Shown piece after piece: positions 3,067 to 49,719 of a stretch of DNA of 64,000 bases. How positions within the stretch are numbered: the stretch's first letter is position 1; every line of letters begins with the position of its first letter. The position numbers and the translations under genes are program-made. The notes beneath the pieces are model-generated. The model did not search any database and was not told the DNA's origin. It saw only the letters and a program-made list of their open reading frames with translations. The stretch comes from a virus, in the IMG/VR virus record IMGVR_UViG_3300044731_001604, positions 32,001-96,000 of that record; one strand, given 5' to 3'.

Positions 3067-3070
3067 ATAT

Positions 3071-3987: not shown

Positions 3988-3988
3988 T

Positions 3989-4570: not shown

Positions 4571-4571
4571 G

Positions 4572-4751: not shown

Positions 4752-4752
4752 T

Positions 4753-5001: not shown

Positions 5002-5002
5002 T

Positions 5003-5365: not shown

Positions 5366-5366
5366 G

Positions 5367-6874: not shown

Positions 6875-6875
6875 A

Positions 6876-7661: not shown

Positions 7662-7837
7662 GAAAAAGAGAGCAGATTGACAACACATTGGATGACAATA
7701 TAAGAGACATTTTGAATGTCAGCTTGGGCTCTAACTTTAGAAATCAAATGTTTTCACGTATTTATAGAAATGTTAGCGCAAGGGCTGATCTGCTACATTT
7801 TATATATTACTATATAAGTACACAAAAGGTTAAATAA
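7658..7837 (+). CDS. MKKRxQ-family small protein A26 (59 aa)
   Basis: Not in track; MRKREQIDN. Confidence 0.75.
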   Translation: MRKREQIDNTLDDNIRDILNVSLGSNFRNQMFSRIYRNVSARADLLHFIYYYISTQKVK

Positions 7838-8037
7838 TGAGGAAAAGAGTACAGATAGACAGACAAATTAATGAGAATCTCAGAGACCCTTTTTACGTAA
7901 AGCTTAGTAATCAATTTAATTATTATGCTTACAATGACATTAGGTCTAACCTATACCCAGAACTTTTCTTGATTGTATACGATCAATTATATAATAATAT
8001 ATATTATGTCATGAGAGAATTGGTAGTGTCAAAATGA
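7837..8037 (+). CDS. MKKRxQ-family small protein A27
   Basis: MRKRVQI start. Confidence 0.8.
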   Translation: MRKRVQIDRQINENLRDPFYVKLSNQFNYYAYNDIRSNLYPELFLIVYDQLYNNIYYVMRELVVSK

Positions 8038-8279
8038 AAAAGCGAGATCGGTTACTAGATAACACAATGAGTCGGTTAATAGATCTTTTAGAAGACAGGC
8101 TTGAGAATAAGATAGTGGATTATTTGGGTTGTCAGTTAGATGATAAGTTATATTATGAGTTTAGAAGTGAGTTAAGAATTAAGTTTTATGATCGGTTAGT
8201 AGATCAAATGAATAATCAACTAAGACATCATTTAAGGACGCAAGTATATGGAGTCGAGAGAAAACATAGAAATATTTGA
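8034..8279 (+). CDS. MKKRxQ-family small protein A28, repeat still visible in DNA
   Basis: MKKRDRL; recurrent GATCGGTTA-like units. Confidence 0.8.
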   Translation: MKKRDRLLDNTMSRLIDLLEDRLENKIVDYLGCQLDDKLYYEFRSELRIKFYDRLVDQMNNQLRHHLRTQVYGVERKHRNI

Positions 8280-8427
8280 TTATACTCGTATAATAATGAG
8301 ATCGTCATATTTTTCTTCTAACAAAATTATATTTGAAACAGATCAAAAGCTCATGTGTATGCTAATTCCATTTTTTCTAGAAATGAGGCAGCAAATCAGG
8401 GAGCATATTACGGGCAATTGCAAATGA
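8248..8427 (+). CDS. Divergent family member A29 (59 aa)
   Basis: Not in track; MESRENI...MRQQIREHI; fills the gap and ends in an ATGA overlap. Confidence 0.55.
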   Translation: MESRENIEIFDYTRIIMRSSYFSSNKIIFETDQKLMCMLIPFFLEMRQQIREHITGNCK

Positions 8428-8603
8428 AGAAACGTAAACAGATTTTCTTGAAGGAATATAACCGCGTATTTACTAAAATGGGTATGCCACTTCCGTCTTC
8501 AGTTGAAGAGGCGGTAGAAACTCAGTTAAAAGATAAGCTTAGGGATGAATTGTTACACCAACTTAGGCTTCACGTTAAAACCCATTTAATGGAAATGAAA
8601 TGA
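8424..8603 (+). CDS. MKKRxQ-family small protein A30
   Basis: Start revised to MKKRKQI. Confidence 0.8.
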   Translation: MKKRKQIFLKEYNRVFTKMGMPLPSSVEEAVETQLKDKLRDELLHQLRLHVKTHLMEMK

Positions 8604-8794
8604 TTAAAAGAAAAATGATACAATACAATTTTAAGACTTTGTTCCACGATTGCCTGTATTCTCAACTTGAGCCAATATTGTATCATAGGCTAAGAGACAG
8701 CTTAAACCATAAGCTTCAGCACTATACGCATAACCCACTTAAGATAGAGCTTTACTATCACATGAATGAAAAGAAAAGCTCCAATTCTAATTAA
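8600..8794 (+). CDS. MKKRxQ-family small protein A31
   Basis: MIKRKMI start; stop overlaps the convergent gene's stop. Confidence 0.8.
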   Translation: MIKRKMIQYNFKTLFHDCLYSQLEPILYHRLRDSLNHKLQHYTHNPLKIELYYHMNEKKSSNSN

Positions 8795-11700
8795 GCAACA
8801 CCAACTGGTTGATATTCAACAGAAATTGCCCATTGAATAGTCGCACCACTAGTACCATAAACAACCGCAACAACATCATTACCTGAAAGAGCAAATGTAA
8901 TTGCATAGTCGCTACCATCGCCATCATATCCATTGATGTTTGAGATAGGGCTTCCAGCAGCTTGAGCCGTTCCACCTGATCTGTAGAAAGTTCCCTCTAA
9001 AGCAAATGAACTAACACCGAGTGGGCCATCGCTTCTTCTAGCAACTGCATTAACTTTAATTCTATAAGAATAGTTATCAGATAAAGTAACTTCAGATCCG
9101 CTAATGATTGTACCAGTAGCTCCAACAACAACTTGCGCAGCAGTTTTTCTAGTTACCGCTGAGTCTGGATGAGATGAATGAGTTTTAAGTTTCTCTACAC
9201 CAGTCCAAACTTCTTTTGGTTTATTGTTTTCTCTACCGATTACAAAGCTTTGGTCTGTAGATTCATTGAATATTCCACCAAGCGCACTTGTTCCGCCAGC
9301 GATTGCAATTGAACCTCTGTTAATGAAACTTGTTTCGCCACCGTTTACGTTTGAAGCAGTTATATTAACCGGTCTTCCTGGGGAAGTTTGAATATCAGCG
9401 CCAGTATTATAAGCCGCTTGTAAACTGATGTCAGCAGATTTAGCTGCTAATACAGATCCATAAGAAGCCATGGCTCTGAAACGGAGTCTAGTATTAGGTG
9501 GTAAAGTACGCTTAAGTCTGATCTTAGCTTTTGGGCCACCAAACGTTTCAACGTAATCGTAACCAGCTTCTCTGATTCCATCATTAACAATAACTAAAAG
9601 CTCTTCGCCAGTTAAGCTCAACTCAGTTGTTTGTTTATAAACTGAATGTGCTCCGTAAGTACCGATACCGCCAGCAGAAAGAACTTCTGTACGTTTATTC
9701 GGTGGAAGAACTAATTCTGTTCCAGTATCACCAAGTGGTGCTGGATCTCCATAAAGTGATACGCCAGCAAAAGGACCATCACCTGGGTTATTCACGGTTC
9801 CTACCATATTGCCGTTTTGGTAAATGCTTGTACCATCAGCAAAGGTACCATTAACTATGTTAATGACAATTGAATTACTACCTTGTAGACCGCCCGGCAT
9901 AACGATAGAAGCAGATTCTATTGTTTCAGTTACATCGGCACTTCCGTGAAGAACCCAGGCTAGGGAGGTGGGACTTTCGATTGAACCTTGGTAGATGTAA
10001 CTGCCTGAGCGTATAATATCTCCGCCAAAATTTGGCGTAAAATCCATTTTTTGTATATAGACAGACTCATCGTATACTGGTCTCTTAAGAGCAGTATTGA
10101 TGCTCCCAACATTCCTGTCCTGTTTTCTATGTGCCAAAGTCAAATTGTCTTGGTCTTCAATGTGCTGATTAACTTGGTAATAAGCCAAAGTATCACTAAC
10201 ACTTAAAGCTGAAATATTTTGATCAACTATAACTGTAATAGACGACAATGGGAATTTAACTGTGTAATAATGGTGATTTCCACTTAAGTCAATAAACTCA
10301 AGCTTATCACCAGTTTGATAACCTAAAAGGTTTGAAGCACTCAAAGTAATCATTTGAGTTTTAGCGTCTAATGCTATAACCTCAACTTGAGATTTATAGA
10401 TGTAAGATCCGCTAGCATCTGCAATACTGTAGTTTGGATTAACTGCAGATTCAGTCATCGCACCAGTGTAAACTAAGTGGTTTGAACCTTGGTTATCGTT
10501 AACCTGTCTTACTTCACCTGGCTCCATCTCTAAAGATCTGAAGTAAACTTTAGCAGAATTATTGTTATCTCTACGTAATGCAAACCAGTAGATATCTGAA
10601 GAGTTTTCAACTAGATAATGCTTAGTAACAAAAACGTCAGAGTAAACACCTTTAGTATAAACCATAGCGCCAGTGTTAGCTGGTCTGTGTACTGTGCTAG
10701 GTGCTTGGCCATCGTTTCCGACTAAGATCATAGATGATGTTGAGATGCTGCCAATTTTTAACCAATGAGAATCTTCTTCATTAGCAAACTTAACAAAGTC
10801 TCCTACTTCTAATAGATTACCGCTGATATCTAAGAAGTTACCAGCAATTGTAGCACTTCCGCCCAATGTACTGTAAACAACACCATTAGAGATTGGTTGA
10901 TTTCTTTCTAACTTAACAAAAGCAACTTCGCCATCTTCCAAGAAAGCTGTGCCAGTTACGCCACTTGTGTTAAACTTGTTAGCTTCAGGTGAAGATCCAG
11001 TAGTATCTACTGTAGCAGTTTGTGGAATAGTGATAGCTAAATCACCGACAACAGACTTAACAACCATGTCACCAGTCCATTGAACCGGACCTGCGTATGG
11101 ATTATTGTCGAAATTTAAGAATACATTTTGGATACCAGTGTTAGTGAAATCAGTTCCGCTTGGGATCTCAGTAGTGCTAGTTAATTTAAATGATGTAGCA
11201 TCAATGTAAGTTAACGTAACTAGCTTATATGCTTTAATAAAAGGAGATAAATTTGAATCGCCATGAATAACAACTGTAGTTGATGGGTTAGAAACTAAAC
11301 CATGATCAACAGTAGTAGTTACTTTAACTTCAGTAGCAGAAAGCTTTTGGATAGAAACAATTCTATTTGGATTAGCTACAGTAGTTTCAGCAACAACTGT
11401 ATCAAAACAGATATCACCACTAGCACTGAATAATTCAGGTAATGCGCTATCTTGTCCAACTGTGTATTGAGCTTTATCGCCAGCGATACAGAAAATTGCT
11501 TGATTAGTTGTATTGTAAGTATTTGAAATAGCGCCAGTAACAGTTGTAATAACTTTGTGGAAAGCTATCTCAGCGTAACCGCCAGTATTAATTTGTGTAA
11601 TTGCTGGATATCCTAGATCAACTGTGATATCTTCACTTACCCCAATGCTTTCAATAGTTTTAATACCGCTAGCTTCTCTATTAGGAGCGCCGATAACTAC

Positions 11701-32939: not shown

Positions 32940-33128
32940 ATGACTAAGCGCGAATTGTCCGCATCTGTTTACATATTGGTTACTTTTATTATATGCTATT
33001 TTGCTTATGGTGTTTATCAGACAAAACAACAAATTTCTCAAGCTTGTGAAGATCAGTGCTACCCGGCGGATGTTAAAGACGCAGATATGCAATATTGTAA
33101 ATGTTTTTACAAAAAAGCTGGGATGTAA
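32940..33128 (+). CDS. Small membrane protein, Cys-rich C-terminus
   Basis: TM helix then CxxxC...CxC. Confidence 0.6.
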   Translation: MTKRELSASVYILVTFIICYFAYGVYQTKQQISQACEDQCYPADVKDADMQYCKCFYKKAGM

Positions 33129-33301
33129 TGGTTAAAAGAGAGCGCATTAGTCTTGGTCTTAATGGTAAAATAAGTTTAGTAATCGGCGATCAAGTCGGAT
33201 ACGATCTATTAAATCATTTGTACACGAAGCTCTATAAAGATTTAAACTATAGTATTGCAATTAAACTACGTTCATACTTATACGAGAAACCCCAAAAATG
33301 A
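33128..33301 (+). CDS. MKKRxQ-family small protein B1
   Basis: Start revised to MVKRERI (TAATG overlap). Confidence 0.7.
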   Translation: MVKRERISLGLNGKISLVIGDQVGYDLLNHLYTKLYKDLNYSIAIKLRSYLYEKPQK

Positions 33302-33495
33302 ATAAGAGAGATCAACACACCATTTCATTTGATTATGAGCTGAGGACAGTATTTCATAATTATTTTTCAACACAAATGCATGGCGATCTTACAAGAGATG
33401 TGTGGATGGAAATTTGGGAAAAACTCGCCTACCAACTAAAAGATAATATGAAAGATAAAGTTAAAGACGTAATTAAGGACAGAATTTCAAAATGA
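33298..33495 (+). CDS. MKKRxQ-family small protein B2
   Basis: MNKRDQ start; VWMEIWEKLAYQLKDNM. Confidence 0.75.
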   Translation: MNKRDQHTISFDYELRTVFHNYFSTQMHGDLTRDVWMEIWEKLAYQLKDNMKDKVKDVIKDRISK

Positions 33496-34382
33496 AAAAG
33501 TTTTATGTATTTGATGTTTCAAATCTATTCTATCGTGGTATCTATGGATCTCAATTAACAACGTCTGAAGGTCGTCCTGTACAGGGATTGCACGGATTCA
33601 TCCAAATTTCTCAAGGGATTATAAAAGATCACAAGCCGGATTATATGCTATTTGCATTAGAGGGCGGCAACCAGCTCAGAAAAAGCATCGACCCGAACTA
33701 TAAAGCAAACAGACCTCCACTTGAGGAAGATATCAAATGGCAAAAAGATTTATTACCTGAACTAATATCTGCTATGGGATATCCAAGTTGGTCTAGCCGT
33801 GGGTTTGAGGCTGATGATGTAATTAATGCTATGGTTAAATTAGGACAAAAGCAAAATCTTGAAGTTGTTATAGTAAGCAGCGATAAAGATTTTAATTGTT
33901 TATTGGGCGAAAATGTTTCTATGTATAATTTAGGTGCTGATAAATATGTCACGAGTCAATCCGTCTTAGAGAAGTACGGCATAACTACAAATCAATTCCA
34001 AGATTATCTGGCAATTGTTGGCGATACGGCAGATAATATCAAAGGCGTATCTGGAGTTGGACCAAAAGGAGCCGCCCAAGCTCTTCAGTCATTTGGTACA
34101 TTAGAAAATATATATAACAACATAGGAGCCCTAAAGCCTAGCCTAGCTAAGAAATTTTCTAATTCAATAGAAGACGTTAAATTGGCTAGGAGGCTAGTAG
34201 CATTGCATTGGCCATCGGACATACCTGAAGACTTAGACGTAACGCAATTTGCGTACGGTGAAGTAAATGCCGATAAGCTTAAACCATTGCTTAGAATGTT
34301 AGAATTCAGAGACTTTGAAAAAATATTTTTTGGCGCACAAATTCTTATCCTAAACGGTATAGAATTTGGAACAAGAAAGTGA
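33492..34382 (+). CDS. 5'-3' exonuclease / flap endonuclease (PolI N-terminal-like)
   Basis: YKANR, GFEADDVI, SSDKDF, GDTADNIKGVSGVGPKGA motifs. Confidence 0.93.
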   Translation: MKKFYVFDVSNLFYRGIYGSQLTTSEGRPVQGLHGFIQISQGIIKDHKPDYMLFALEGGNQLRKSIDPNYKANRPPLEEDIKWQKDLLPELISAMGYPSWSSRGFEADDVINAMVKLGQKQNLEVVIVSSDKDFNCLLGENVSMYNLGADKYVTSQSVLEKYGITTNQFQDYLAIVGDTADNIKGVSGVGPKGAAQALQSFGTLENIYNNIGALKPSLAKKFSNSIEDVKLARRLVALHWPSDIPEDLDVTQFAYGEVNADKLKPLLRMLEFRDFEKIFFGAQILILNGIEFGTRK

Positions 34383-35587: not shown

Positions 35588-37714
35588 TTAATATATCTCT
35601 CGCCATTGTAATCCAGCTGATATATTTGTGGCTTTTGTATCAATATTTTTAACAATTATGACATAAACTTCCGAGTTAGTAGAATCAAAATTTTGCACTA
35701 TATAGTTCTTTTTAGCCGAACTTGGAATTACTGCATTTGAATCGCTTCCAGCCTTACTTCCGCCTTGTGACGCAGATGCTGCAAACCCAACGCTTAGTAT
35801 GTCTGCATTTGTATATCCAGTCGCATTAGCTAGATATTCAACGCCACTTTCAGAGTTAGTACTGGTCCACACTCCAGCTCCACCTGTTAAGTTAGACGCA
35901 TTTTGTAATTTTGCTATAGAAAATTGAACGTTACCAGAATCAGTGAAAACTGTAACTTGTCCTAGTCTAGCTAACATACGATTTAAATATGTTTTATAAT
36001 TATTTTTCAATCTAATTGCTAATATTGGTAAAGTTTGACCTGTGCCCAAAAGTCTTGGTGTGGGACTTGCAAGCGCCCAATCAATTCCAGCCTCAACATA
36101 TCCGCCTTCACTAACAACTGTACTACAAATTTGATCCATATATGCACCAGTTGTAACTCCGGTGTTAAATATTTCGCAGCGAACTGGCAAATTTGGATTA
36201 CTCATATAAACTGTAGTAAGATTATTTTCGCCATCAAAATGATGCGCCTCAATATATTTACCCTCATGAGAAAACCCAACCCTGACTCTTCCCACGCCAA
36301 GCCATTGAAAATCTATAAAAAGCAACTGAGTTTTTGTAATATCTAAGTTTAAAGAACTAATTCCAGTTCCATCGCACTTGTCAACATTCCAATTTAACTG
36401 AGAAACTCTATTTTCATTGACGGCACCATTAATATAGCTTCTTAAGACAATATTTAAGGTTCCGTTTCCGGTTTGTTCAAAGTAAATTCCATTATTATCA
36501 TCAAACAGCCCAGTTCTTTTTGTCACCCCTGAAGTACTTGAATAAAAATTAAAGGATGACATTATTAGCTGGCTTTTTCCTGGCATATAATGATGATAGC
36601 ATTTGGTCTGGTGTATCGCCTTACTATTAACATCACTGCTGGTAGTCAATCTCGCGCATGCTTTATTTGATTGAAATGAAATAGTTCCACCATTTAATGT
36701 ATAGTCTATGAAATTTGGGTCTATTCCGTAGAGATGTTTATAGTCTCCAAGGGTATACGGCTCGCTCACTCTTTGTCTTGCAAAAGCATCTAGTGTGCCG
36801 ACCCCAGGAGTTGTAAAAACAGATCCGGATACTACCCACGGATTTGTTCCTTGATTTGCAGTAACTGTTCCGTTTACAGTTTGAGTTGCCGGGAAATTAC
36901 CAACATCAACTGTTCCGTTTACAGTTTGAGTTGCCGGGAAATTACCAACATCAACTGTTCCGTTTACAGTTTGAGTTGCCGGGAAATTACCAACATCAAC
37001 TGTTCCGTTTACTGTTTGTGTAGCTGGGAAATTACCAACATCAACTGTTCCGTTTACTGTTTGTGTAGCTGGGAAATTACCAACATCAACTGTTCCGTTT
37101 ACTGTTTGTGTAGCTGGGAAATTACCAACATCAATGGAAGAGTTTAAAAAATATACGTCTAACCCAATATCAGTTCCAACAGTATGCGATGTTAAAAAAT
37201 TGGTTCCGTCTCCAAGACGAACAGAATCATTTGTATGTGTAAGATCAACGTCTAGGCTAACTTCTGGCTTAATTGTAATATTTGCATCAACAGCAAGTCT
37301 ATTAACTCCATTTTCATCTGCTACAAATTCTGCATACTGACCATATTTATCTACGAGGATTGATCTTTTTGCATTTATTGGATCTTCTGCATGACTAGCT
37401 CTTTCAAAAATCTCCATTCCCATCGGATTTCTTTGTTGTTCCCAAGCAGTTAAGGTTCCGCCGGAGTACGAAGTAGGATTGGAAAATGTGGCCATGTCTT
37501 TTCCAACTGGACCGACTTGAATCTGAGTGTCAGAGATAACTCTCTTAATTTCAAGCTCTAGTTGTTCTAAGCCTGTTTTATTTAAATATACCAATTGTTT
37601 AGGATGTAATAATCCTTGAGTATCTGGTACTGTAATTATATGATTTGAAACTTGAATCGGATTGGCTAAAAATGTAGGCCACCGTCTATCAAACGACGAA
37701 GTTAACTTGCTCAT
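35588..37714 (-). CDS. Virion/appendage protein with 15-aa repeats and lectin-like C-terminal domain
   Basis: Six DVGNFPATQTVNGTV repeats; C-term DAFARQRVS...KRTGLFDDNNGIYFE...WLGVGRVRVG; start could be 37735. Confidence 0.6.
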   Translation of the reverse strand: MSKLTSSFDRRWPTFLANPIQVSNHIITVPDTQGLLHPKQLVYLNKTGLEQLELEIKRVISDTQIQVGPVGKDMATFSNPTSYSGGTLTAWEQQRNPMGMEIFERASHAEDPINAKRSILVDKYGQYAEFVADENGVNRLAVDANITIKPEVSLDVDLTHTNDSVRLGDGTNFLTSHTVGTDIGLDVYFLNSSIDVGNFPATQTVNGTVDVGNFPATQTVNGTVDVGNFPATQTVNGTVDVGNFPATQTVNGTVDVGNFPATQTVNGTVDVGNFPATQTVNGTVTANQGTNPWVVSGSVFTTPGVGTLDAFARQRVSEPYTLGDYKHLYGIDPNFIDYTLNGGTISFQSNKACARLTTSSDVNSKAIHQTKCYHHYMPGKSQLIMSSFNFYSSTSGVTKRTGLFDDNNGIYFEQTGNGTLNIVLRSYINGAVNENRVSQLNWNVDKCDGTGISSLNLDITKTQLLFIDFQWLGVGRVRVGFSHEGKYIEAHHFDGENNLTTVYMSNPNLPVRCEIFNTGVTTGAYMDQICSTVVSEGGYVEAGIDWALASPTPRLLGTGQTLPILAIRLKNNYKTYLNRMLARLGQVTVFTDSGNVQFSIAKLQNASNLTGGAGVWTSTNSESGVEYLANATGYTNADILSVGFAASASQGGSKAGSDSNAVIPSSAKKNYIVQNFDSTNSEVYVIIVKNIDTKATNISAGLQWREIY
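36863..37132. repeat. 45-bp tandem repeat x6
   Basis: Two synonymous variants in blocks of 3+3. Confidence 0.95.
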
Positions 37715-37789
37715 AATAAAATTTCCCCAACCCAATGAAATTATTCATTTATGCCCCACGGCATTACTAAACCAATGTCTAGCTAATTA

Positions 37790-37838: not shown

Positions 37839-38036
37839 TTAAATGCGTTTTGAAGTCTGAATATATCTTTGCGCCTGTTCTTTGGTTTCTTTATATAAAA
37901 CATCAAATAACATACTGCCGAGATTTGAATATGATTTTGAATAAATACTATAGGATGGCATGTTGCAATATTTTGAATACAGCCTGCTTCTGAAACTAGT
38001 AAGGTGTGCGCTCCCCAATGCTTCTCGTTTTTCCAT
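37839..38036 (-). CDS. MKKRxQ-family small protein C3
   Basis: MEKREAL start. Confidence 0.65.
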   Translation of the reverse strand: MEKREALGSAHLTSFRSRLYSKYCNMPSYSIYSKSYSNLGSMLFDVLYKETKEQAQRYIQTSKRI

Positions 38037-38037
38037 C

Positions 38038-38229
38038 TTATTTGCCTATTTTTTCTTCATATAATTGTTGGTGAGTTTGATCTCTTAATTCGTACCAGAG
38101 CGTGATGTCTTTTAATTGCTCCCAAATTTGGGCATACATTTGATCTGATATTGTGGAATGGAGCCACATATACAGTTCGTCCCTAAATCTCTCTCTTAGT
38201 TTATCCCGAAACTGCTCTCTTTTTCTCAT
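38038..38229 (-). CDS. MKKRxQ-family small protein C2
   Basis: MRKREQFRDKLRERFRDELY. Confidence 0.8.
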   Translation of the reverse strand: MRKREQFRDKLRERFRDELYMWLHSTISDQMYAQIWEQLKDITLWYELRDQTHQQLYEEKIGK

Positions 38230-38421
38230 TTATGTATTTTTCTTTTGGGTTTCGTGACAGATTTGTTCACATATTTGATCAATCAATTCTGCATTGATTT
38301 CATATATTTCTTCCCAAGTCCCTTCTAAAACATTATCAATAACGTCACCATATACGTTTCTATCAATCATTTCATATAAATGATCTTTGATTTTTCTATA
38401 TATCTGATGACGTTTTTTCAT
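38230..38421 (-). CDS. MKKRxQ-family small protein C1
   Basis: Start revised to MKKRHQI. Confidence 0.75.
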   Translation of the reverse strand: MKKRHQIYRKIKDHLYEMIDRNVYGDVIDNVLEGTWEEIYEINAELIDQICEQICHETQKKNT

Positions 38422-38428
38422 TGTATGC

Positions 38429-39535
38429 CTACAATCTGATAACTTTGCCGAAATCGCCTGGTGGATTTTGTGACCCAACTCCTACCCAAATAAAGGGAAT
38501 GCCTGGATTTGTCGGCGTGTCTGCGCAATCAAAATCACCGAAATATATAATAGCGTCACATTTTCTTTTTACGCATTCGTCAATTGCTGGTTGATATGCA
38601 GTTCCACCGCTACCAAATCTTTTTGTTAATACACCAGGTTTAGCTTTTCCACCTTTAATTACATCAACTTTTTGCACTTCAGAATCTGCGTGGACTAAGT
38701 AAGTGATCGTAGTATTTTTTGCTATAGATGATATTTCATTTAAGAATGATGAGTAAGCTTCGTCCGAGATTGACCCTGACGAATCAGTACATACACCAAG
38801 TATTAAATTTCTTTTCTTTTTCTTGCCTGGTTGATCTAGCTCAAATCTTCTGTGAGTTTTAAGGCGTGTGCTTTTAGTTTGGACGTCCCTAGCCGATGAA
38901 ACAAAGTTTCTTAAGAGCTGCTTCCAGCTAATTGTCGCTGGTTTATTTAAATTACCAATGATAGACTCTAATCCATTCGGAACAAGCCCACCAGATGCCT
39001 TTATGGCTTGATTAACCTTGTCTTTAATAATCACTCTATCTAAATCGCCTTTTTCGCTTTCGTTCATTTCATCATGATCGCTCATCCACGATGCTACTTC
39101 TTGCTTATCTGCTACTTCTGCCATTTCTTTGTAATAGTATTCCCAAGACTCTTTTGGCAAAAGTTTCTTCTTACACATTTCTTCTGCCCACGCAAGCGTA
39201 ATGCAATCTGATGGTAAATCAGAAATGTGTTGGTTAATAGCGCAATCTTTTGCTATGTTTGTTAATTGATGATTAAGGATATCTCCAGCCCTATTGCCGA
39301 TATGATCTAAAACCGCGTGTAAAACTTCGTGTTTTAACACAGCAATCTGTTGAGCATCGGTTAATGTTGCAAACCAGTCTGGATTTACTTTAAAGTAAAG
39401 CTCTTTGTTCTTAATACCTACGCAAGCTCTTTCAATTTTTGGATCATCATAAACGACTCTAGAGCCTAAAATAAAATTAGCATAGAATCGTTCGGTATTA
39501 ATTAACGTAAAAATTGGCTTTTCTAGTAAACCCAT
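38429..39535 (-). CDS. DUF2201-type protein: HExxH metallopeptidase-like N-terminus plus VWA-like domain
   Basis: HEVLH, NIAKDCAINQ, MIDAS-like TDSSGSI, GSGGT, YFGD. Confidence 0.85.
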   Translation of the reverse strand: MGLLEKPIFTLINTERFYANFILGSRVVYDDPKIERACVGIKNKELYFKVNPDWFATLTDAQQIAVLKHEVLHAVLDHIGNRAGDILNHQLTNIAKDCAINQHISDLPSDCITLAWAEEMCKKKLLPKESWEYYYKEMAEVADKQEVASWMSDHDEMNESEKGDLDRVIIKDKVNQAIKASGGLVPNGLESIIGNLNKPATISWKQLLRNFVSSARDVQTKSTRLKTHRRFELDQPGKKKKRNLILGVCTDSSGSISDEAYSSFLNEISSIAKNTTITYLVHADSEVQKVDVIKGGKAKPGVLTKRFGSGGTAYQPAIDECVKRKCDAIIYFGDFDCADTPTNPGIPFIWVGVGSQNPPGDFGKVIRL

Positions 39536-39558
39536 GGAAATCTCCTATTATAATAATA

Positions 39559-40617
39559 TTATGCTTTTTCAAACTGAGCTGCGTATTCGGGGTCATTTAA
39601 GAGATCATTTTTTCCATGGAAATTGCCAAGTTTTCCTAATCCGACAAAGGCTTTCATAGCTAACTCAATTGGGATATCTAGTAGAAATTGCTTTAGATTA
39701 TCAATAGACATATCTGCTGAAAGGAGGTGAGGGTTGCTCTCTAGTTTAGCAAATAATTCATCAATTGGCTGATTAAGAACATCCATGCGAACATTGCTAG
39801 CACTTGCCGTGATATCTAATACTTTATTTCTAGCAATTTTTTTGTAGTTTTTAAGAATGTCATTAAGGCTTAATCCTGTTTCTTGCTTAGCTTTGTGTGT
39901 TAATCTAGCCGCTGCTGCAACCGGCCCTACAATACCTGAATATAATTCATATCTTAGACTATCATCTAATCCTTCTTCTAAATCAAGGGCGCCAACGCTT
40001 TCAAGCCAAGCTCTAGGGTCTCTTGTAACCATTGACATATCAAGTCTTCCGCCTTCTTTTGCAGTAAGATTTAACATCTCAGGTTGTTCACGAATAAAAG
40101 AAGCAAGGCTAAATAATCCTCTGCTTTCTGCATAAACTAACCATTCTTCAGTTGTAGGAGTGAAATCAATATGACAGAAACGAGATAGCCAAGCTGAGTC
40201 GCTTGTATCTGTTGTAGTGAATCTTTCTGATTGGTAGTTTCCAGCAGCAGCGATACGCCAACCCGGAGGTAATTTGTGTGTATGAATAGTTCCATTTTGC
40301 ACAAAAGAATACATTGCTTGAATTACATCAGTCGGCGCTCTATTTAATTCATCTAAAAAGATAATTCCTTCACCCTCAGTAGGAAACCATTTAGGTTTTG
40401 CATGATAAACTTCGCCGTTTTCGCCTTTAACTAAGAGGCCAACTAAATCGCCCACATCTTGAGTAGCCGTGTGTAAAACTCTTAATTGTAAGTTGTTCTT
40501 TACGCAATACTGATTCCAAAACTGTGTCTTTCCAACACCTTGACTGCCCCAAAAGAATGGAACAATTCGGTTTTTTAATAGAAAAGGAATAGCTTTGTTG
40601 ATTTCAGAAATATTCAT
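39559..40617 (-). CDS. MoxR-like AAA+ ATPase
   Basis: Walker A GSQGVGKT, Walker B IIFLDELNRA, AAGN, SRF; start revised to MNISE after GGAGG. Confidence 0.9.
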   Translation of the reverse strand: MNISEINKAIPFLLKNRIVPFFWGSQGVGKTQFWNQYCVKNNLQLRVLHTATQDVGDLVGLLVKGENGEVYHAKPKWFPTEGEGIIFLDELNRAPTDVIQAMYSFVQNGTIHTHKLPPGWRIAAAGNYQSERFTTTDTSDSAWLSRFCHIDFTPTTEEWLVYAESRGLFSLASFIREQPEMLNLTAKEGGRLDMSMVTRDPRAWLESVGALDLEEGLDDSLRYELYSGIVGPVAAAARLTHKAKQETGLSLNDILKNYKKIARNKVLDITASASNVRMDVLNQPIDELFAKLESNPHLLSADMSIDNLKQFLLDIPIELAMKAFVGLGKLGNFHGKNDLLNDPEYAAQFEKA

Positions 40618-40636
40618 CTGGACCTCCGTTTCAATT

Positions 40637-40665
40637 ATCATAACATTTTATTTTCGGTACGTCAA
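40637..40665 (-). promoter_or_regulatory. sigma70-type promoter (leftward arm)
   Basis: TTGACG-17 nt-TATGAT with extended TG. Confidence 0.7.
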
Positions 40666-40679
40666 CCTAAAAAAACTTA

Positions 40680-40707
40680 TTGCAAATTGTTTTATTTGTG
40701 CTACATT
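40680..40707 (+). promoter_or_regulatory. sigma70-type promoter (rightward arm)
   Basis: TTGCAA-16 nt-TACATT with extended TG. Confidence 0.5.
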
Positions 40708-40740
40708 TAATATGTACCATTTAACAAAAAGGAGCATAAA

Positions 40741-41367
40741 ATGGATAACAAAATTACTGAACTTACCCCAGAACAAGAAGCGTTATTTCCAGCTTATTTG
40801 GAAAAATTCAGAAATATCGGCCTATCAACTACTCCAACAAATAGACAAAAGGCTGAAGAGGCTTTAACAAAAGCTTATGCTTATTTATCTAAAACTGATC
40901 CTAATTTATGCGTTCCAAATCCAGAAATCATCTGGGCAGAAAGCCCAATGGCAGGCGCAGTTCTTGCTGCTCAACACGCTAAAGGCGATCTTAACGTAAC
41001 AGATTCAGAAGTGCAAGATCAAGCTTGGCGAGCTTCTTATGGTTCATTCGAGGCATACTGGGTGAGTACTTATTCATTTATCTGCAATGAGCTTCCAGTA
41101 GAAAAAGACGAGCTTATCGACATCGTTATGGAAATCATCAATGAGTGCGGCGTGTACTGGACATATAAAGATTTGGTTATCCTTACTCCAAAGCCAACTT
41201 TTATCGGAATGAAAGACGGAAAATTACACAACTCTAAAGGGCTAGCTTTAGCATATCCAGATGGAAACGGAATCTATGCTGTAAATGGTTCTAGAAAAAA
41301 CTCTTTAATTGAAGCTACGTTAGAACAAAGAGCTAACAGCTTAATTGGTTCAACTTCAGAAGATTAA
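40741..41367 (+). CDS. DUF6745-like protein
   Basis: ITELTPEQEA...IGLST.P.NR..AE; IIWAESP; YG..EAYW..Y; CG.YW.Y..L.IL..KP; GKLHN..G.AL.YPDG..IYA.NG. Confidence 0.75.
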   Translation: MDNKITELTPEQEALFPAYLEKFRNIGLSTTPTNRQKAEEALTKAYAYLSKTDPNLCVPNPEIIWAESPMAGAVLAAQHAKGDLNVTDSEVQDQAWRASYGSFEAYWVSTYSFICNELPVEKDELIDIVMEIINECGVYWTYKDLVILTPKPTFIGMKDGKLHNSKGLALAYPDGNGIYAVNGSRKNSLIEATLEQRANSLIGSTSED

Positions 41368-41390
41368 AATAAACACGTATGAGGGTCGCC

Positions 41391-41582
41391 ATGAGGCAAA
41401 GAGATCAGATAAATAGAATAAGCAACAAGTATTTTGATCATATTGACGGCGACCTTTATAATGAAAATTTTCATTTAATATCAGATTATCTCCAATACAT
41501 TTTATACATTGAGCGCTCACCAGTCGATAACATTGTTGACGAGCTATCCACATATATTGAGACTATGAATTTGGGGAATTGA
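41391..41582 (+). CDS. MKKRxQ-family small protein D1
   Basis: Start revised to MRQRDQI. Confidence 0.75.
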   Translation: MRQRDQINRISNKYFDHIDGDLYNENFHLISDYLQYILYIERSPVDNIVDELSTYIETMNLGN

Positions 41583-41587
41583 TTTAA

Positions 41588-41785
41588 ATGAAAAAACGCA
41601 AGCAGATAGACGGAATCCTTTTTACGATTATTGAAAACAATCTTTACCATCAGGTATACTACGATGTCAATTCAAAAAATCGAGAAAAGATCTATACAGG
41701 AATTTACGAACTGCTTATGGATGAACTAAATGTTAAGTTAATAAATATTATTAACGATTTTATTAAATCGAGAAGAGCATCATGA
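41588..41785 (+). CDS. MKKRxQ-family small protein D2
   Basis: MKKRKQI start. Confidence 0.8.
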   Translation: MKKRKQIDGILFTIIENNLYHQVYYDVNSKNREKIYTGIYELLMDELNVKLINIINDFIKSRRAS

Positions 41786-41979
41786 AAAAAAGGGTTCAGA
41801 TACCTGATTTTTTAAATGAAAACATATGCGATCATCTTAGATATAGCATATATGTTCAAGTTGATGATACTATTTGGCGTGTAATACTATCTGAACTATA
41901 TATAAAACTTCATGATAAGCTTAACAATACGTTAATTAATGAAACCTGGGATTATATTAAAATGGGGCCAAAAATATGA
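41782..41979 (+). CDS. MKKRxQ-family small protein D3
   Basis: MKKRVQI start. Confidence 0.8.
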   Translation: MKKRVQIPDFLNENICDHLRYSIYVQVDDTIWRVILSELYIKLHDKLNNTLINETWDYIKMGPKI

Positions 41980-42182
41980 AAAAGCGCATCCAATTTAATG
42001 ATCCTCTATATAATATATTCTATCCTAAAATTAGAGATAGAGTTAGGCTTGAAATAAAATATAAAACTTTTGAAAAGATAAGCAAGAGACTCACTGGTGA
42101 GCTTAATTCGCAATTCTGGGGCCAAATTGGATATCAGATTGGTAAATACATCGAGGATAGGAGTTCAAGTGAGAAGGCGTGA
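41976..42182 (+). CDS. MKKRxQ-family small protein D4
   Basis: MKKRIQF start. Confidence 0.8.
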   Translation: MKKRIQFNDPLYNIFYPKIRDRVRLEIKYKTFEKISKRLTGELNSQFWGQIGYQIGKYIEDRSSSEKA

Positions 42183-42351
42183 GCAGATTACTGATCAGCT
42201 TAGGGATAATGTTTGGGAATCTTTAAACGGGCAGCTCCAATATCAAATTGAACCAGATATCTATAATAGGCTGCATGACGTTCTGTGCGAAGAAAAGAGA
42301 TACAGACTCATAAGCCAATTATATTTATATTTAAGGACTAGGGTTAACTAA
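42169..42351 (+). CDS. MKKRxQ-family small protein D5
   Basis: Start revised to GTG-RRREQITDQLRDNVW after AGGAG. Confidence 0.75.
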   Translation: MRRREQITDQLRDNVWESLNGQLQYQIEPDIYNRLHDVLCEEKRYRLISQLYLYLRTRVN

Positions 42352-42555
42352 ATGAGGAAACGAGAACAAATCACTAGTCAATTTTCATATCAACTTTGGG
42401 ATAGACTTAGAGATGACATATACGTGCAACTGTATTCCTCATTTAATGAGGACATACACAATAAACTCAGGGACAATCTTTGGCTTGAGCTGCAAATATT
42501 ATTGTACGATAGAACGTATAGCTATTTGCAAAACTATATAGGCAAGAAGCAATGA
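42352..42555 (+). CDS. MKKRxQ-family small protein D6
   Basis: MRKREQI; QLWDRLRDDIYVQLY. Confidence 0.8.
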   Translation: MRKREQITSQFSYQLWDRLRDDIYVQLYSSFNEDIHNKLRDNLWLELQILLYDRTYSYLQNYIGKKQ

Positions 42556-42728
42556 AGAAGAATAAAATTATAGAATTTAAATTAAGAGTTAGATTAAAAG
42601 AACAAATCACAAAATCTTGTGGTTCAGATTGTATCAGCACGTCAAGAAAAAAGCTAAGAGAATTATCATCTTACGACTTATATAAAGCGGCTGTTGGAGA
42701 AATTGTCTCTGCTTCTGTGTCAAAATAA
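42552..42728 (+). CDS. Divergent family member D7 (58 aa)
   Basis: Not in track; MKKNKII; ATGA overlap. Confidence 0.5.
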   Translation: MKKNKIIEFKLRVRLKEQITKSCGSDCISTSRKKLRELSSYDLYKAAVGEIVSASVSK

Positions 42729-42747
42729 ATATTTTTTAATATTTTTC

Positions 42748-42776
42748 TTGCTTTTAATATCAGATATTGGTAATCT
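42748..42776 (+). promoter_or_regulatory. sigma70-type promoter
   Basis: TTGCTT-17 nt-TAATCT with extended TG. Confidence 0.5.
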
Positions 42777-42794
42777 AGGTTTATTGGAGGCGTT

Positions 42795-43184
42795 ATGAAA
42801 TTCAAAGCCGGAGATAGATTTATAGTTAAGGCAAGCGAGTCTGATTTAGGAGCCACTGGAAAAATAACTGGAATTGGGTTTAATTCTATACGCCAATCTG
42901 ACGAATATAGATATGTTTGGGACCAGCAATTCGGCGGTTCTACTGGGAGCTGTGATACAGAAGTTGGGGATTCTATGTGGGACATTATTGCGGCAGATAT
43001 CCACACACATACATACACACATGTTTACACAATTCCTGAAGACAATTATACAATTTCAGTTGGAAACATCGTTTGGAACAATCCTACTTCCAACTCTACA
43101 AATTGTTCCCACGAATATAAAATGTATAATGGATTTACTGAAAGTTATGAATTTTGCATTAAATGCGATAAAAGAAAGATCTAG
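42795..43184 (+). CDS. Hypothetical protein with C-terminal CxH...CxxC
   Basis: GGAGG RBS; CSHEY...CIKC. Confidence 0.7.
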   Translation: MKFKAGDRFIVKASESDLGATGKITGIGFNSIRQSDEYRYVWDQQFGGSTGSCDTEVGDSMWDIIAADIHTHTYTHVYTIPEDNYTISVGNIVWNNPTSNSTNCSHEYKMYNGFTESYEFCIKCDKRKI

Positions 43185-43188
43185 TAAT

Positions 43189-43407
43189 ATGAGGAAAAGA
43201 GAGCAGCCTAATAATTTGTTTTTTAACCAACTTGTCATAAAGCTTAGGGATCAAGCTGAAAACCAACTTTGTGATAATTTAAGTTATCAACTACATGATA
43301 ATCTTAAGCTTTACAAGATTTGTGAACAGTTTCGCAATACAGCTCTTAATATTATTCGTACACAATCATTAAATGATATTGATAATAAATTAAAAAGAAA
43401 GGTTTAA
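43189..43407 (+). CDS. MKKRxQ-family small protein E1
   Basis: Start revised to MRKREQ; QLCDNLSYQLHDNL. Confidence 0.75.
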   Translation: MRKREQPNNLFFNQLVIKLRDQAENQLCDNLSYQLHDNLKLYKICEQFRNTALNIIRTQSLNDIDNKLKRKV

Positions 43408-43778: not shown

Positions 43779-44000
43779 ATGAAGAAACGTAAGCAAATAT
43801 CAGATCATATAAGTAATGATTTAAAGTTTGAGCTTTTTGATAGGCTTGAAGAGCAGGTTGATGGTGAACTTTTTGATCAAATTGATGAGGAACTTTTTGA
43901 GTACGTTACAGGTGGAAGCTACATTGACATAGATGTAAACTTAATAAAAGAACAGTTGTTTTCTCATATTGAAAATATAAATGGCCGAAAGGTTGGTTAA
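43779..44000 (+). CDS. MKKRxQ-family small protein E2
   Basis: MKKRKQI; ELFD/ELFE x3. Confidence 0.8.
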   Translation: MKKRKQISDHISNDLKFELFDRLEEQVDGELFDQIDEELFEYVTGGSYIDIDVNLIKEQLFSHIENINGRKVG

Positions 44001-46168: not shown

Positions 46169-46417
46169 ATGAGAGCTAGAGATCAGATTGGTCACTTCAC
46201 AAGTAGCCAGTATATTCATTTTTTAAAACAAATAAATAAATCAAATTGTTTTGGCACAGTGAGTGTTGCATCTGTGTTTGTTGGCCATCGAACAATCCAA
46301 GTTAAAGCTGGAAGTTTTATATTAGACAAGCTTTCCACTATCGCTGATGAATGCCCAAGTCTAAGACATCATATAATGGACCACATAATAGAAAATTCTT
46401 ACGGAAACTGCAAATAA
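46169..46417 (+). CDS. Divergent MKKRxQ-family protein E4
   Basis: MRARDQI start; LRHHIMDHI end. Confidence 0.55.
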   Translation: MRARDQIGHFTSSQYIHFLKQINKSNCFGTVSVASVFVGHRTIQVKAGSFILDKLSTIADECPSLRHHIMDHIIENSYGNCK

Positions 46418-46467: not shown

Positions 46468-46971
46468 TTAGATACCGTCTGTAATTTTAGCTGCAGTAGC
46501 AGACTCATCATCTCCGCCGCCAGCGATTCCAGTTTCATCTTCGCCTTTAAGTGCTACGATTTCAATTCTGATATCAGAAACACCTCTAGAAGCTACTCCA
46601 GATGACCATGAAGTTACTTTACAACCTACAGCTCTAAAGATAACTTTGTTATTGTTTGCTCTATCTAAAACTTCTACTGTGAAATCCTCTTCTTCTAAAA
46701 GATCTTTAAGTAAAGTTGCATTAGCTACAGCGTATGGTCCAGCGTCTACTACTCTGTATCCAGATAAAGATAAAGAGACAGCTTCTTGGCTTGTTCCAAC
46801 GATTTCTGCTGGAGAGTATCTACCCAATACAAATAAAGGCTCTTTTGCTTGTCTGATAGACCAAGAGCAGTTGCTGAATAATCCAACTGTGTGGGAAGAA
46901 GGCTTTCCGCCTACATTTTTAGTGATTTGAATTTTGGCCCGTGCGCCGACCAATGTTTTTGCTTTTGCCAT
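46468..46971 (-). CDS. Tail tube protein
   Basis: 167 aa, directly after sheath; VG....SWS....EPLFVLGRYSPAEI. Confidence 0.8.
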   Translation of the reverse strand: MAKAKTLVGARAKIQITKNVGGKPSSHTVGLFSNCSWSIRQAKEPLFVLGRYSPAEIVGTSQEAVSLSLSGYRVVDAGPYAVANATLLKDLLEEEDFTVEVLDRANNNKVIFRAVGCKVTSWSSGVASRGVSDIRIEIVALKGEDETGIAGGGDDESATAAKITDGI

Positions 46972-46983
46972 AAATACTCCCTA

Positions 46984-49719
46984 TTAAGCTGTTTGTTCTA
47001 CTTGAGAAATGGTCATTGAGATTGGAACGAAGTAAATTAAACCAGCGAGTTTGATCTCTACGCTGACTTCACATACAGGTCCAGTGATTTTAACTGTAGC
47101 GTTTTTATAACCCTTAGTTGCATCATCTGATTGAGCAATCCATTTAAGTCTCAAGAAGTTAAACATTTCAGTGTCTAAGATACTTAAAGCAGCCGCTGCA
47201 GAGATATCAGCTACAGATTTACCAACTACTAAGCGATCAAAACGGTCGATTAGAGTAAGTACGATTAAATCTGAGATATAAACAGCTTGCATGCTATTGT
47301 AAACGAAATTGTTATCAGCAGAATATGTGCTTTGATCAGATACCCATCTGAATCCGCCAGTTGGAACTTTTTCCATGAACAACAATCCAGCTTTTAATGC
47401 ATCTTCTCTATCACCTTGAAGAGAAGTGTCGAAATCGCCAGAAGTCATAGAAATTCCGCTTACAGAAGCGAATTTTTTAACGATACCTTTGTATCCTGCA
47501 GCAGCCTGCATTCCAGCAGCTGTGATCGCAGACATCCAAGGTTGGTATAAAGTAGATCCGATTTTAGCGTTTTGGAAGCAGAGGTACATTCTGTATGAAG
47601 AAAGTTCTCCAGACATCTCTTTAACGTTTGCATAAGTATCAATTACAGATGCAAAACCTTGTCTATTCTTTTTAGCTTTAATTTGGCTCATTTTATTAAC
47701 GTGAGCTTTAAGGTAAGCATTGATAGAAGAGATAGTATAAGTAGAAGAGCTTTCAGTTTCTTCAGCCGCGATATCTGCAGTAGCATCTTGTGAGAATAAT
47801 GGAACGATAAAGTTAGTATCCAATTTTTCACATGCATCAATTGCAGTAACAACGATTGCTGAAGTTGTTCCAGCTTTAGTTCCATCAGATAAGAATTGGA
47901 AAGAAGCAGTAGCTTCAGGCAATCCAGCAGCAAGAACTTCAAAAGAAGCATAAGCGCTACCGTTCATTGTTTCAGAGAAATCAGAAGCATCTTTTTTAAG
48001 TCTAGCATTGTTTGCAATACCAGAAGCTCCATAAGTTCCCATATCTAATTTAGAAGGAGCAACAGAACTGTACTTAGCAGAAACAACTGAAGCTGTCCAG
48101 TTAGTTTGTGAGTTAACAAAATCAGCTAAATCAGTTAATGTTTTATATTGTTTATAAGTAGCTGAGAATACCATTGTAGAAGCTACATAGAAATCAACAC
48201 TTTCTGTTCCAACATCAACTGTTGCATCTTCTTCAGAGCAACCGATAGTTATAACAATGTCACCACCAGCTTGGAGGATTTCAGAGTTAGTTCCTTGAGT
48301 GATTGTCATTTGATTTTTGTATTCAGCAGCAGACACTAATTGTTTATAGCTTAGACCTGCATCTGTTCCAGCGTCTGTTTTGAAGATTTCGCTAGTTGAG
48401 CTTTCAATTGCCAATGTTTTTCCCAATCCAGACATAACTGGAGCAAGAACTACTAGAGGTTCCGTGCCAGAGCTATATGCTGCAGAAGCAGGAACTGAAG
48501 CAATTGAAGATCCTTCAGAAAGTCTAGAAGCAGTAATTGATGTAGCAGTTGCAGCAGTGATTTGATAGAAACCAGCGGCTACTGTTCCAAAAGTAGCAGC
48601 AACTTTCATGATGTCGCCGATACTTGGAGTAACATTTAAATTAGCTGGTGCGTCGATTTTTACGCTTGATCCAGTGTTAATAGATACTGTATAAGTACCG
48701 AAAACATCTTGAACAGCTTGTCTTTCGTCGCCAGTCATATTTTTAATTTCGATTTTAGAATAGAACACAAGGTCACGTTTATCAACAGACACTGATCCAG
48801 AAGCAGATGTTAAAGCTGCTGCAGAGTAAACTTTTTTCAAAGTTACTGTAGCTGAAGAAGAAGTGTTTGTAGCTGCTGTAACGATGTACGTTCCAACGTT
48901 TTCTTGAGAAGATCCAGCAATCGCTGAATTTTGAGCAGCAGAGTAATCACCATTTGCAGGGATTACAGCTACGTCTCCAACGCTTGGAATAGTTGTCCAC
49001 AATTTAGTAGCTTGTAAAGTTACTAAAAGAGTACTTGCGTCAAGTGCAGATGCAGAGAATGTAGATGTAGTTGGCAATAAGATTTTTTCTTGTCCACCAG
49101 TTGCCAATACGCCTTCTGCGATATTTTCTAATGCTGCAACTAATGCATCTGGAGCCATTTTAGGAGTAACAGTGTGAGACATTTTTGCTCCACCGTTAAT
49201 TCTTAAATCAACATAATTTGTGTCAGATAAAGTTGGAGTATAGCAAATTTCTCCAGTTGTAGGTGCAGTTTCTGCTCTAGCAACATCTGATTTTTGTTTA
49301 ATTAAGTTTCCGTCAGTTCCTTCTTTTTTAGCTAAAACATTAGCATAAGTAGGAGTGTCTTTAACTTTTTGAGTCATCGTAGCGGCTGCTTTAGTTGACA
49401 TATTAGTTTTAATAATTCTTACCGCACCAACAGAACCTAAAATGTTAGGGTCATTTGCAGCAGAAACTAATTGTTTAAAAGCATCAACGATGTGACCACT
49501 TTTATATTTAGACTGTACTTTGCTGTACTGGTCTGGAGTGAATATATTTGCTGTAAGATCTGATTCATCTAAGAATCCTGGACCGGCATCAGCTTCACCA
49601 ATAAGTGTAACTACTCCAGCAGAAGCGATTGCACCCTGGCCACCTTGAACAGATACTGAAACTACTGCACCTGGTTCAATTAATGTAATTCCATCTTGGG
49701 TCGTAAATTTTTGACTCAT
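46984..49719 (-). CDS. Tail sheath protein
   Basis: N-term LIEPGA...VVTLIGEADAGP; C-term sheath core ALKAGL...FRWVSDQSTY...IYFVPISM. Confidence 0.88.
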   Translation of the reverse strand: MSQKFTTQDGITLIEPGAVVSVSVQGGQGAIASAGVVTLIGEADAGPGFLDESDLTANIFTPDQYSKVQSKYKSGHIVDAFKQLVSAANDPNILGSVGAVRIIKTNMSTKAAATMTQKVKDTPTYANVLAKKEGTDGNLIKQKSDVARAETAPTTGEICYTPTLSDTNYVDLRINGGAKMSHTVTPKMAPDALVAALENIAEGVLATGGQEKILLPTTSTFSASALDASTLLVTLQATKLWTTIPSVGDVAVIPANGDYSAAQNSAIAGSSQENVGTYIVTAATNTSSSATVTLKKVYSAAALTSASGSVSVDKRDLVFYSKIEIKNMTGDERQAVQDVFGTYTVSINTGSSVKIDAPANLNVTPSIGDIMKVAATFGTVAAGFYQITAATATSITASRLSEGSSIASVPASAAYSSGTEPLVVLAPVMSGLGKTLAIESSTSEIFKTDAGTDAGLSYKQLVSAAEYKNQMTITQGTNSEILQAGGDIVITIGCSEEDATVDVGTESVDFYVASTMVFSATYKQYKTLTDLADFVNSQTNWTASVVSAKYSSVAPSKLDMGTYGASGIANNARLKKDASDFSETMNGSAYASFEVLAAGLPEATASFQFLSDGTKAGTTSAIVVTAIDACEKLDTNFIVPLFSQDATADIAAEETESSSTYTISSINAYLKAHVNKMSQIKAKKNRQGFASVIDTYANVKEMSGELSSYRMYLCFQNAKIGSTLYQPWMSAITAAGMQAAAGYKGIVKKFASVSGISMTSGDFDTSLQGDREDALKAGLLFMEKVPTGGFRWVSDQSTYSADNNFVYNSMQAVYISDLIVLTLIDRFDRLVVGKSVADISAAAALSILDTEMFNFLRLKWIAQSDDATKGYKNATVKITGPVCEVSVEIKLAGLIYFVPISMTISQVEQTA

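Follow-up and report, generated by a model that had tools for sequence, protein, structure and literature searches.

A conserved phage trio of MoxR-like ATPase, zincin-VWA and short DUF6745 genes, with mini-proteins that may be detached DUF6745 repeats

The 64,000-nucleotide stretch of virus DNA analysed here (the window) covers bases 32001-96000 of the 157.6-kb record IMGVR_UViG_3300044731_001604, which is rated 98% complete. It carries a locus in which genes for a MoxR-like AAA+ ATPase, a zincin-like metallopeptidase fused to a VWA domain, and a short DUF6745 protein adjoin chains of very small genes that belong to one family. We propose that the three larger genes encode a phage ternary MoxR-VWA module, with short DUF6745 as its third part, and that the small proteins (mini-proteins) are detached DUF6745 repeat modules; judged on sequence comparison, we put this joint explanation at even odds. 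The synteny of the trio and the division of DUF6745 between a core gene and mini-genes are solid as sequence observations, and are unpublished. The central features are as follows (positions in the window).

38429-39535, minus strand: zincin-like metallopeptidase fused to VWA, 368 amino acids (aa); Pfam DUF2201_N 3e-14 and DUF2201 1.2e-16; phrog_1314 1.4e-54
39559-40617, minus strand: AAA_5/MoxR-like AAA+ ATPase, 352 aa; AAA_5 above cut-off; phrog_1297 2e-50
40618-40740, no strand: divergent intergenic region, presumed to hold promoters for both operons; promoter-like sites and Shine-Dalgarno sites
40741-41367, plus strand: short DUF6745 core without the repeat tract (208 aa), N-domain plus first half of the DUF6745 domain; Pfam 32.8 bits

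Two small-gene chains and the three larger genes diverge from the 123-bp spacer at 40618-40740. A sequence-only reading of this DNA had given the layout correctly, with the ATPase, zincin-VWA and family genes following one another leftward, and the DUF6745 and family genes rightward. Its counts were slightly generous: the 3 leftward family genes that it listed are 2 clear members and 1 weak one, and the 7 rightward genes are 6 clear members and 1 weak one.

The evidence for a module comes from other phages, whose gene contexts were gathered by exact-protein look-ups and an IMG/VR scan, all loci then being searched for the four parts with hidden Markov models (HMMs). More than 120 proteins are related to the DUF6745 protein of the window, with which they share 45-68% identity. 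A short, tract-less DUF6745 gene has both the ATPase and the zincin-VWA gene no more than 5 kb away at 12 of 13 distinct loci in phages (the window, L010, L011, L013, L020, L021/24, L023, L026, L029, L030, L031 and L032); at the thirteenth short-form locus (L025) the contig ends 2 kb past DUF6745, in a record rated 37% complete. The trio occurs in at least five gene orders (VWA-ATPase-DUF6745, DUF6745-ATPase-VWA, ATPase-DUF6745-VWA, VWA-DUF6745-ATPase, and the divergent order of the window), and its retention despite differing order is the usual signature of functional coupling. By gene neighbourhood, then, the ATPase, the zincin-VWA protein and short DUF6745 form a conserved module.

Five or six lineages have family genes interspersed among those of the trio. 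L011 has 19 such copies (head MKKHKQI), L023 has 7 (M[KR]RRxQL, e.g. MRRRTQL), L026 has 4 or more (MTKHKQ, MTKHKQI), L021 has 2 and L024 has 1; L010 and L020 have weak or diverged copies near the trio, and in L032 the tract lies inside a DUF6745 paralogue adjoining the same ATPase/VWA pair. The earlier caution that the linkage could be incidental was not borne out, since the link between family and locus recurs in other divergent phages.

What ties the mini-proteins to DUF6745 is a repeat that long DUF6745 proteins carry internally and that of the window lacks. The window DUF6745 protein is a truncated member: its match to DUF6745 (PF20530; cut-off 27 bits) covers only profile positions 8-88 of 206, it ends about 100 residues short of the long and medium forms, and the internal tetrapeptide tract is absent, with at most two vestigial tetrads at residues 88-97. 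When the family profile was searched exhaustively with HMMER against 1.84 billion proteins, it gave 467 matches, the top ones being proteins of 350-720 aa with 3-6 matched stretches (E to 2e-35), and PF20530 is carried by 82 of the 100 long proteins tested among those matching the profile. These long forms consist of an N-domain (LTPEQEA...), a (D/S)Q(L/V)x tract of 16-220 residues, and a DUF6745 C-domain. Alignment of short against long forms with hhalign (probability 100%, E 5.7e-41) makes the tract a single insertion near residues 84-88 of the window protein. On the window genome, which holds one DUF6745 core, the long-form profile matches the 40741 gene by model positions 2-83 and 219-318 only, and the mini-genes by positions about 78-217, which is the tract.

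Long forms with a name (PF20530, phrog_31813) include gp38 of Mycobacterium prophage prophiGD102-1 and gp174 of Microcystis phage Ma-LMM01. They share the N- and C-domain of the 40741 gene, and the (DQLx)n tract inside them is what the mini-protein family matches (for gp38, E 7e-45 over 5 stretches); they differ from the window arrangement in being a single polypeptide with an internal tract and a full C-terminal subdomain, and no ATPase/VWA neighbour was seen. The complementary presence and absence of the tract, together with adjacency, argue for a split of DUF6745 in which the mini-proteins would be detached copies of its internal repeat tract; this is one part of the joint explanation given above. 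The cyanobacterial fusion of DUF6745 to LRR repeats, another variable binding module, fits a DUF6745 that is paired with variable binding repeats.

A possible halfway state is seen in L032, where two side-by-side DUF6745 paralogues (9689-10282 and 10317-10961) follow the ATPase and VWA genes, one with an (SQLx)n tract and one without; this pair looks like a step between the fused layout and the split one. The idea that the missing C-terminal subdomain of DUF6745 had moved into the ATPase was rejected, as hhalign of the ATPase family against long DUF6745 gave a probability of 0.2%.

Structure prediction gave a confident AlphaFold2 model of short DUF6745 (pLDDT 95.7), for which Foldseek returned no match at E <= 0.001 and VIA-align a best Z of 4.3 (root-mean-square deviation 4.6, 58 aligned). 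The model thus has no clear fold match in the PDB, which does not in itself prove a new fold; it reaches a TM score of 0.75 to viral DUF6745 clusters of the ESM Atlas. In the AlphaFold2 model of a long form the tract appears as long helices of low confidence, and a fold search with it returned generic long helices only. A PDB sequence search for DUF6745 gave no match, and the literature searched does not mention DUF6745.

The small-protein family itself was defined by an HMM search over the genome, which finds about 40 members at E <= 0.002: 26-28 at 2863-8794, 2 at 33101-33495, 2 to the left of the VWA gene, 6 to the right of DUF6745, 3 more up to window position 46417, and 1 at genome position 105120. 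Those near the trio, with two weaker candidates, and the main array are listed here.

37839-38036, minus strand: possible degenerate family member, 65 aa, head MEKREA; HMM E 0.42; aligns with the family; starts 1 nt past the stop of the previous member
38038-38229, minus strand: family member, 63 aa, head MRKREQF; HMM E 3e-22; identical protein on 14 contigs of the same phage
38230-38421, minus strand: family member, 63 aa, head MKKRHQI; HMM E 1.5e-19; 63-aa gene calls on L002-L008
41391-41582, plus strand: family member, 63 aa, head MRQRDQI; HMM E 0.0011; 63-aa calls on L002-L007
41588-41785, 41782-41979, 41976-42182, 42169-42351 and 42352-42555, plus strand: five chained members; HMM E 7e-13 to 3e-21
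42552-42728, plus strand: possible degenerate member, 58 aa, head MKKNKII; HMM E 0.35; orthologue in a related strain (P0013)
43189-43407, plus strand: further member, head MRKREQP; HMM E 5e-7, C-terminal part of open reading frame (ORF) 42874-43407
43779-44000, plus strand: further member, 73 aa, head MKKRKQI; HMM E 8.6e-18
46169-46417, plus strand: divergent member, 82 aa, head MRARDQI; HMM E 4.3e-13, a value to be read knowing that the sequence was in the seed set
2863-8794, plus strand: main family array, 26-28 members by HMM, about 30 kb from the trio

Beside the trio the members follow one another closely, either separated by 0-23 nt or overlapping by 4-14 nt, and the member at 38230-38421 starts with the ATG at 38421, not the TTG at 38478. 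A head M-[KR]-[KR]-R-x-Q-[IL] followed by about 50 aa in which every fourth residue is hydrophobic is found in 11 genes between 38038 and 46417, and only weakly in 37839-38036 and 42552-42728. Between members, identity is 66% in the head and 11% in the body, where the fraction of hydrophobic residues at every fourth position is 0.76, against 0.25-0.41. R4 is invariant in 21 of 21 members through 5 codons, Q6 in 21 of 21 through two codons, and I7 is likewise kept through different codons, while the 30 nt upstream of the family genes are not conserved. These observations point to selection on the peptide, not on the DNA, so that the conserved N-terminal head described in the sequence-only reading holds at the protein level; a DNA-level element, such as a junction repeat or ribosome-binding site, was ruled out as its source on the same evidence.

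Could the mini-ORFs instead lack function and encode no real proteins, having arisen only through slippage and duplication of a 12-bp repeat? The bodies are repeat-like, some being near-perfect microsatellites (window 4753-5001), and such tracts carry spurious open frames on the other strand or in other frames. The frames nonetheless stay open and the head survives synonymous codon changes, the genes are tightly chained on one strand, and even phages with no more than 40-65% identity in their core genes share the head-plus-body design; we regard this explanation as highly improbable.

Two further observations concern how the family varies. Between the window (41391-42728) and a related strain (L009 1-1700), the flanking genes share 80% nucleotide identity and the mini-gene stretch is left unaligned by blastn; on this comparison, the mini-genes are diverging much faster than their neighbours. 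In L033 (11131-12137) and L034 (2414-3032), stand-alone (DQVx)n proteins have constant heads of their own, and across L033, L034 and L041 the stand-alone repeats begin with MKSVxxQV, with MI[DN][VI]RYQV (the two heads of L033 and L034), or with no head; detached repeats in general seem to have a lineage-specific head.

In both proteins of the ATPase/VWA pair the catalytic and MIDAS motifs are intact. The ATPase passes the gathering score of Pfam AAA_5 (23.9 bits, cut-off 22), which is matched by 12 of 12 orthologues (best 1.7e-9); AAA_3 (COG0714), the mark of MoxR proper, is matched by 8 of the 12 at E <= 0.01 (best 4e-5) and bpMoxR by one. Its Walker A GxxGxGKT (G24, G27, G29, K30, T31) and Walker B DE (D89, E90) are invariant in the ATPase alignment. 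The nearest solved relatives of the ATPase profile are the AAA domains of midasin (3e-17), followed by ClpA/B, with CbbQ and NorQ weak. With the single ATPase sequence, a PDB sequence search gave no match and an IMG/VR scan no relative, relatives being reached only via the DUF6745 alignment. The zincin-VWA protein matches DUF2201_N (53.7 bits, cut-off 23.2) over residues 9-150 and the VWA-like DUF2201 (61.4 bits, cut-off 26.4) over residues 248-368, with the N-to-C order kept. Both its HExxH residues H69, E70 and H73 (and H78) and its DxSxS MIDAS residues D251, S253, G254 and S255 are invariant in 12 orthologues; as aligned, the zinc site and MIDAS motifs are intact, and catalysis is predicted. 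A PDB sequence search with the VWA profile gave no match, PADLOC no meaningful defence-family match, and an NCBIfam search no match.

The pair is also common on its own, as had been claimed: relatives of the ATPase occur in 464 phage records, and two whole records that bear the pair, N4-like Salmonella phage FSL SP-058 and Moorella phage MTATph1, have no DUF6745. The order of dependency appears to be that the family goes with DUF6745, that short DUF6745 goes with the pair, and that the pair also occurs alone. In GenBank phage records and PHROGs the phrog_1314 zincin-VWA gene bears the label 'HNH endonuclease' (L042, SP-058, 6992-8128; L043, MTATph1, 7059-8231), which looks like a propagated misnomer.

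In light of these findings, what might be the core of the system? One option is that the ATPase/VWA-peptidase pair is the core machine, with the small proteins as interchangeable adaptors or substrates that are recognised via the basic head, and DUF6745 as an accessory. Family genes directly follow the VWA gene in the window, L011 and L026, the head is conserved at the protein level, and the peptidase has kept its motif. The ligands of VWA MIDAS sites are acidic, and the family bodies are rich in D and E. Against this, the pair is widespread without the family or DUF6745 (as in SP-058 and MTATph1), stand-alone repeats lie beside DUF6745 in contigs that have no pair (L033, L034, L041), and the family matches a segment of DUF6745 and nothing in the pair. 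We therefore think this option unlikely. The proposal that the trio is the core machinery is upheld as far as the conserved three-gene module goes, and gives way where it tied the family primarily to the ATPase/VWA pair, the primary tie being to DUF6745. The suggested check of co-occurrence and synteny came out likewise mixed, the 12 of 13 short-form loci with the trio standing against repeats without the pair in the three contigs just named, and against complete genome G002, which has the trio and no family member at all.

In the explanation that we prefer, in which the mini-proteins are DUF6745 repeat modules set free as separate genes, their partner would be the tract-less DUF6745 core, which they would most likely bind. 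A constant docking element would be provided by the lineage-specific head (in this phage MKKRxQI) and a variable surface by the hypervariable helix, such that dozens of alternative modules might be mounted on one DUF6745 core. In phages of the clade whose DUF6745 has lost its C-terminal half along with the tract, the ATPase and VWA-peptidase may assemble, exchange or proteolytically process the complexes, a role suggested by analogy with MoxR-VWA chaperone pairs and midasin. The target is probably a host or competitor protein, a conflict-type target being what the hypervariability suggests. A prediction of the three-chain complex (VWA protein, DUF6745 and mini-protein) was counted neither way, as a control with the VWA protein replaced scored nearly as high.

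A more ambitious form of this mechanism is combinatorial recognition, in which the DUF6745 core is loaded via the head with any of about 40 mini-proteins and the ATPase and VWA-zincin serve as loader, exchanger or protease; we hold this to be unlikely. If it were true, a single virus could direct many binding specificities at host or rival targets. The set would be the counterpart, among proteins, of a variable-receptor library, one that arises by gene detachment and slippage, not by a diversity-generating retroelement.

Several points weigh against the explanation that we prefer. G002 and several trio loci with no family member within 10 kb indicate that the trio does not need the family, and complete genomes G006 and G007 have long-form DUF6745 and neither an ATPase nor a VWA gene. 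The DUF6745 that adjoins the stand-alone repeats of L033, L034 and L041 is of medium length, and these contigs have neither gene of the pair. In the window phage itself, the majority of the family, 26-28 of some 40 copies, sits 30 kb away from the trio. The repeat is of low complexity, and a profile match alone cannot separate common descent from convergence. We had also considered that the internal tracts of long forms might start with the same basic head, and rejected this, as only a weak K-L-R-D preference is seen. Given that long DUF6745 and stand-alone repeats occur where the pair is absent, the weakest step is the role of the pair with the mini-proteins. For the pair, virion assembly has been proposed instead (Iyer et al. 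2021, Viruses 13:63, PMC7824862).

That proposal is the basis of a different view of the locus, in which the pair, perhaps with short DUF6745, is a chaperone for virion assembly or processing, and the mini-genes merely accumulate in permissive small-gene regions; the nearness of the pair would then be without significance for what the mini-proteins do. The position of the locus, between a virion structural gene (35588-37735) and the tail sheath and tube genes (46468-49719), is in keeping with this, as are the distance of the largest family array and the trio of G002, which occurs there without the family. The interleaving of family genes with the trio nevertheless recurs across lineages despite reshuffled gene order, and the family is connected to one trio protein through its homology to the DUF6745 tract. 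We consider this view unlikely.

How does the module compare with known systems? A MoxR ATPase with a vWA co-chaperone that has an N-terminal metallopeptidase is known in group 2.2 jumbo phages, and the virion-assembly proposal made for it names no third partner (Iyer et al. 2021). The pair of jumbo and N4-like phages, including SP-058, is of the same phrog_1297 and phrog_1314, adjacent and co-oriented, with HExxH and MIDAS intact; it differs from the window pair in that ATPase identity is only about 25-30%, and in that the window-type pair is invariably accompanied by a short DUF6745 gene, and frequently by repeat mini-genes as well, whereas SP-058 and MTATph1 have no DUF6745 anywhere.

Closer in organisation are the bacterial MoxR-vWA ternary conflict systems of the VMAP, iSTAND, FtsH and beta-propeller types (Kaur, Burroughs, Iyer and Aravind 2020, eLife 9:e52696, PMC7159879), which likewise combine a MoxR/vWA chaperone pair with one specific conserved third protein. 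The third protein of the VMAP type has three parts, among them an all-alpha middle that varies greatly and an alpha+beta C-domain that is conserved (PMC7159879), a layout that resembles the N-domain, variable helical tract and alpha+beta C-domain of long DUF6745. By Pfam, no VMAP, iSTAND, FtsH or beta-propeller domain was found in short DUF6745 or in 100 long DUF6745 proteins. The window module also differs in being phage-encoded, in having a vWA protein with an N-terminal zincin instead of C-terminal effectors, and in having the variable middle detached into separate genes. Midasin/Rea1 offers a likeness of mechanism class only, the pairing of an AAA_5 motor with a MIDAS domain by which a client is held. 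Midasin itself is one very large polypeptide that acts in ribosome biogenesis, and has neither a peptidase nor DUF6745.

Placing the three proteins together has consequences for each of them. The phage MoxR/VWA-metallopeptidase pair is present in hundreds of phage records and has no known client, and the fixed synteny offers it a candidate specific partner; DUF6745, which is mostly viral and has no known fold, gains a candidate machine. The mini-protein library is a natural set of ready-made variants for probing what the system recognises, and every component is small and looks soluble. Should the mini-proteins indeed dress a DUF6745 core, this would be a new viral route to protein diversity, in which a slippage-prone repeat has been detached into many small genes.

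With regard to expression, divergent promoters are demanded by the geometry of the locus and are plausible as predicted sites only. The leftward member of the back-to-back promoters that had been claimed is a good candidate (TTGACG-17-TGnTATGAT, 40665-40637, score 10/12); the rightward one (TTGCAA-16-TACATT) scores 8/12, which is below the scan threshold, and the claim is confirmed only in part. The region has no excess of promoter-like sites (41, versus 40.2 +/- 7.2 in shuffles). Shine-Dalgarno sites GGAGG and AGGAG precede the two first genes. The ATPase starts with the ATG at 40617 (MNISE...), 5 nt behind GGAGG, not at 40641, and independent gene calls on seven near-identical contigs also give it 352 aa.

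As for the source phage, no cultured relative is nearer than Myxococcus phage Mx1, with which it shares 36% identity in the tail sheath, and megablast of the locus against GenBank phages gave zero matches. In a genome-contig collection, short DUF6745 matched only contigs in the bins of an uncultured Bacteroidales metagenome-assembled genome (MAG) and a Flavobacteriaceae MAG (L040 and L041), L040 being a 3.4-kb contig that is 99% identical to window 39966-43237. This binning is a weak hint of a Bacteroidota host, to which the strong GGAGG Shine-Dalgarno sites ahead of the ATPase and DUF6745 genes are a poor fit.

Three observations concern neighbouring genes. In L013 (7019-7627), L014 (1475-2083) and L020 (5007-5582), the gene immediately upstream of DUF2201 is Peptidase_M10-like and about 200 aa long; it was found in two trio lineages without the mini-protein family and could be a fourth, alternative component. 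The two family members at 33101-33495 are directly upstream of, and overlap, a 5'-3' exonuclease gene (33492-34382; PF02739/PF01367, L002 gene calls). Finally, the virion structural gene beside the locus (ORF 35588-37735, phrog_1645, minus strand) contains at 36863-37134 a 45-bp unit repeated 6.0 times with 98% matches, which encodes VDVGNFPATQTVNGT repeats; this region differs between otherwise 99.9%-identical contigs, the L002 call having 648 aa versus 715 aa, from which it follows that the copy number of the 45-bp repeat varies between strains.

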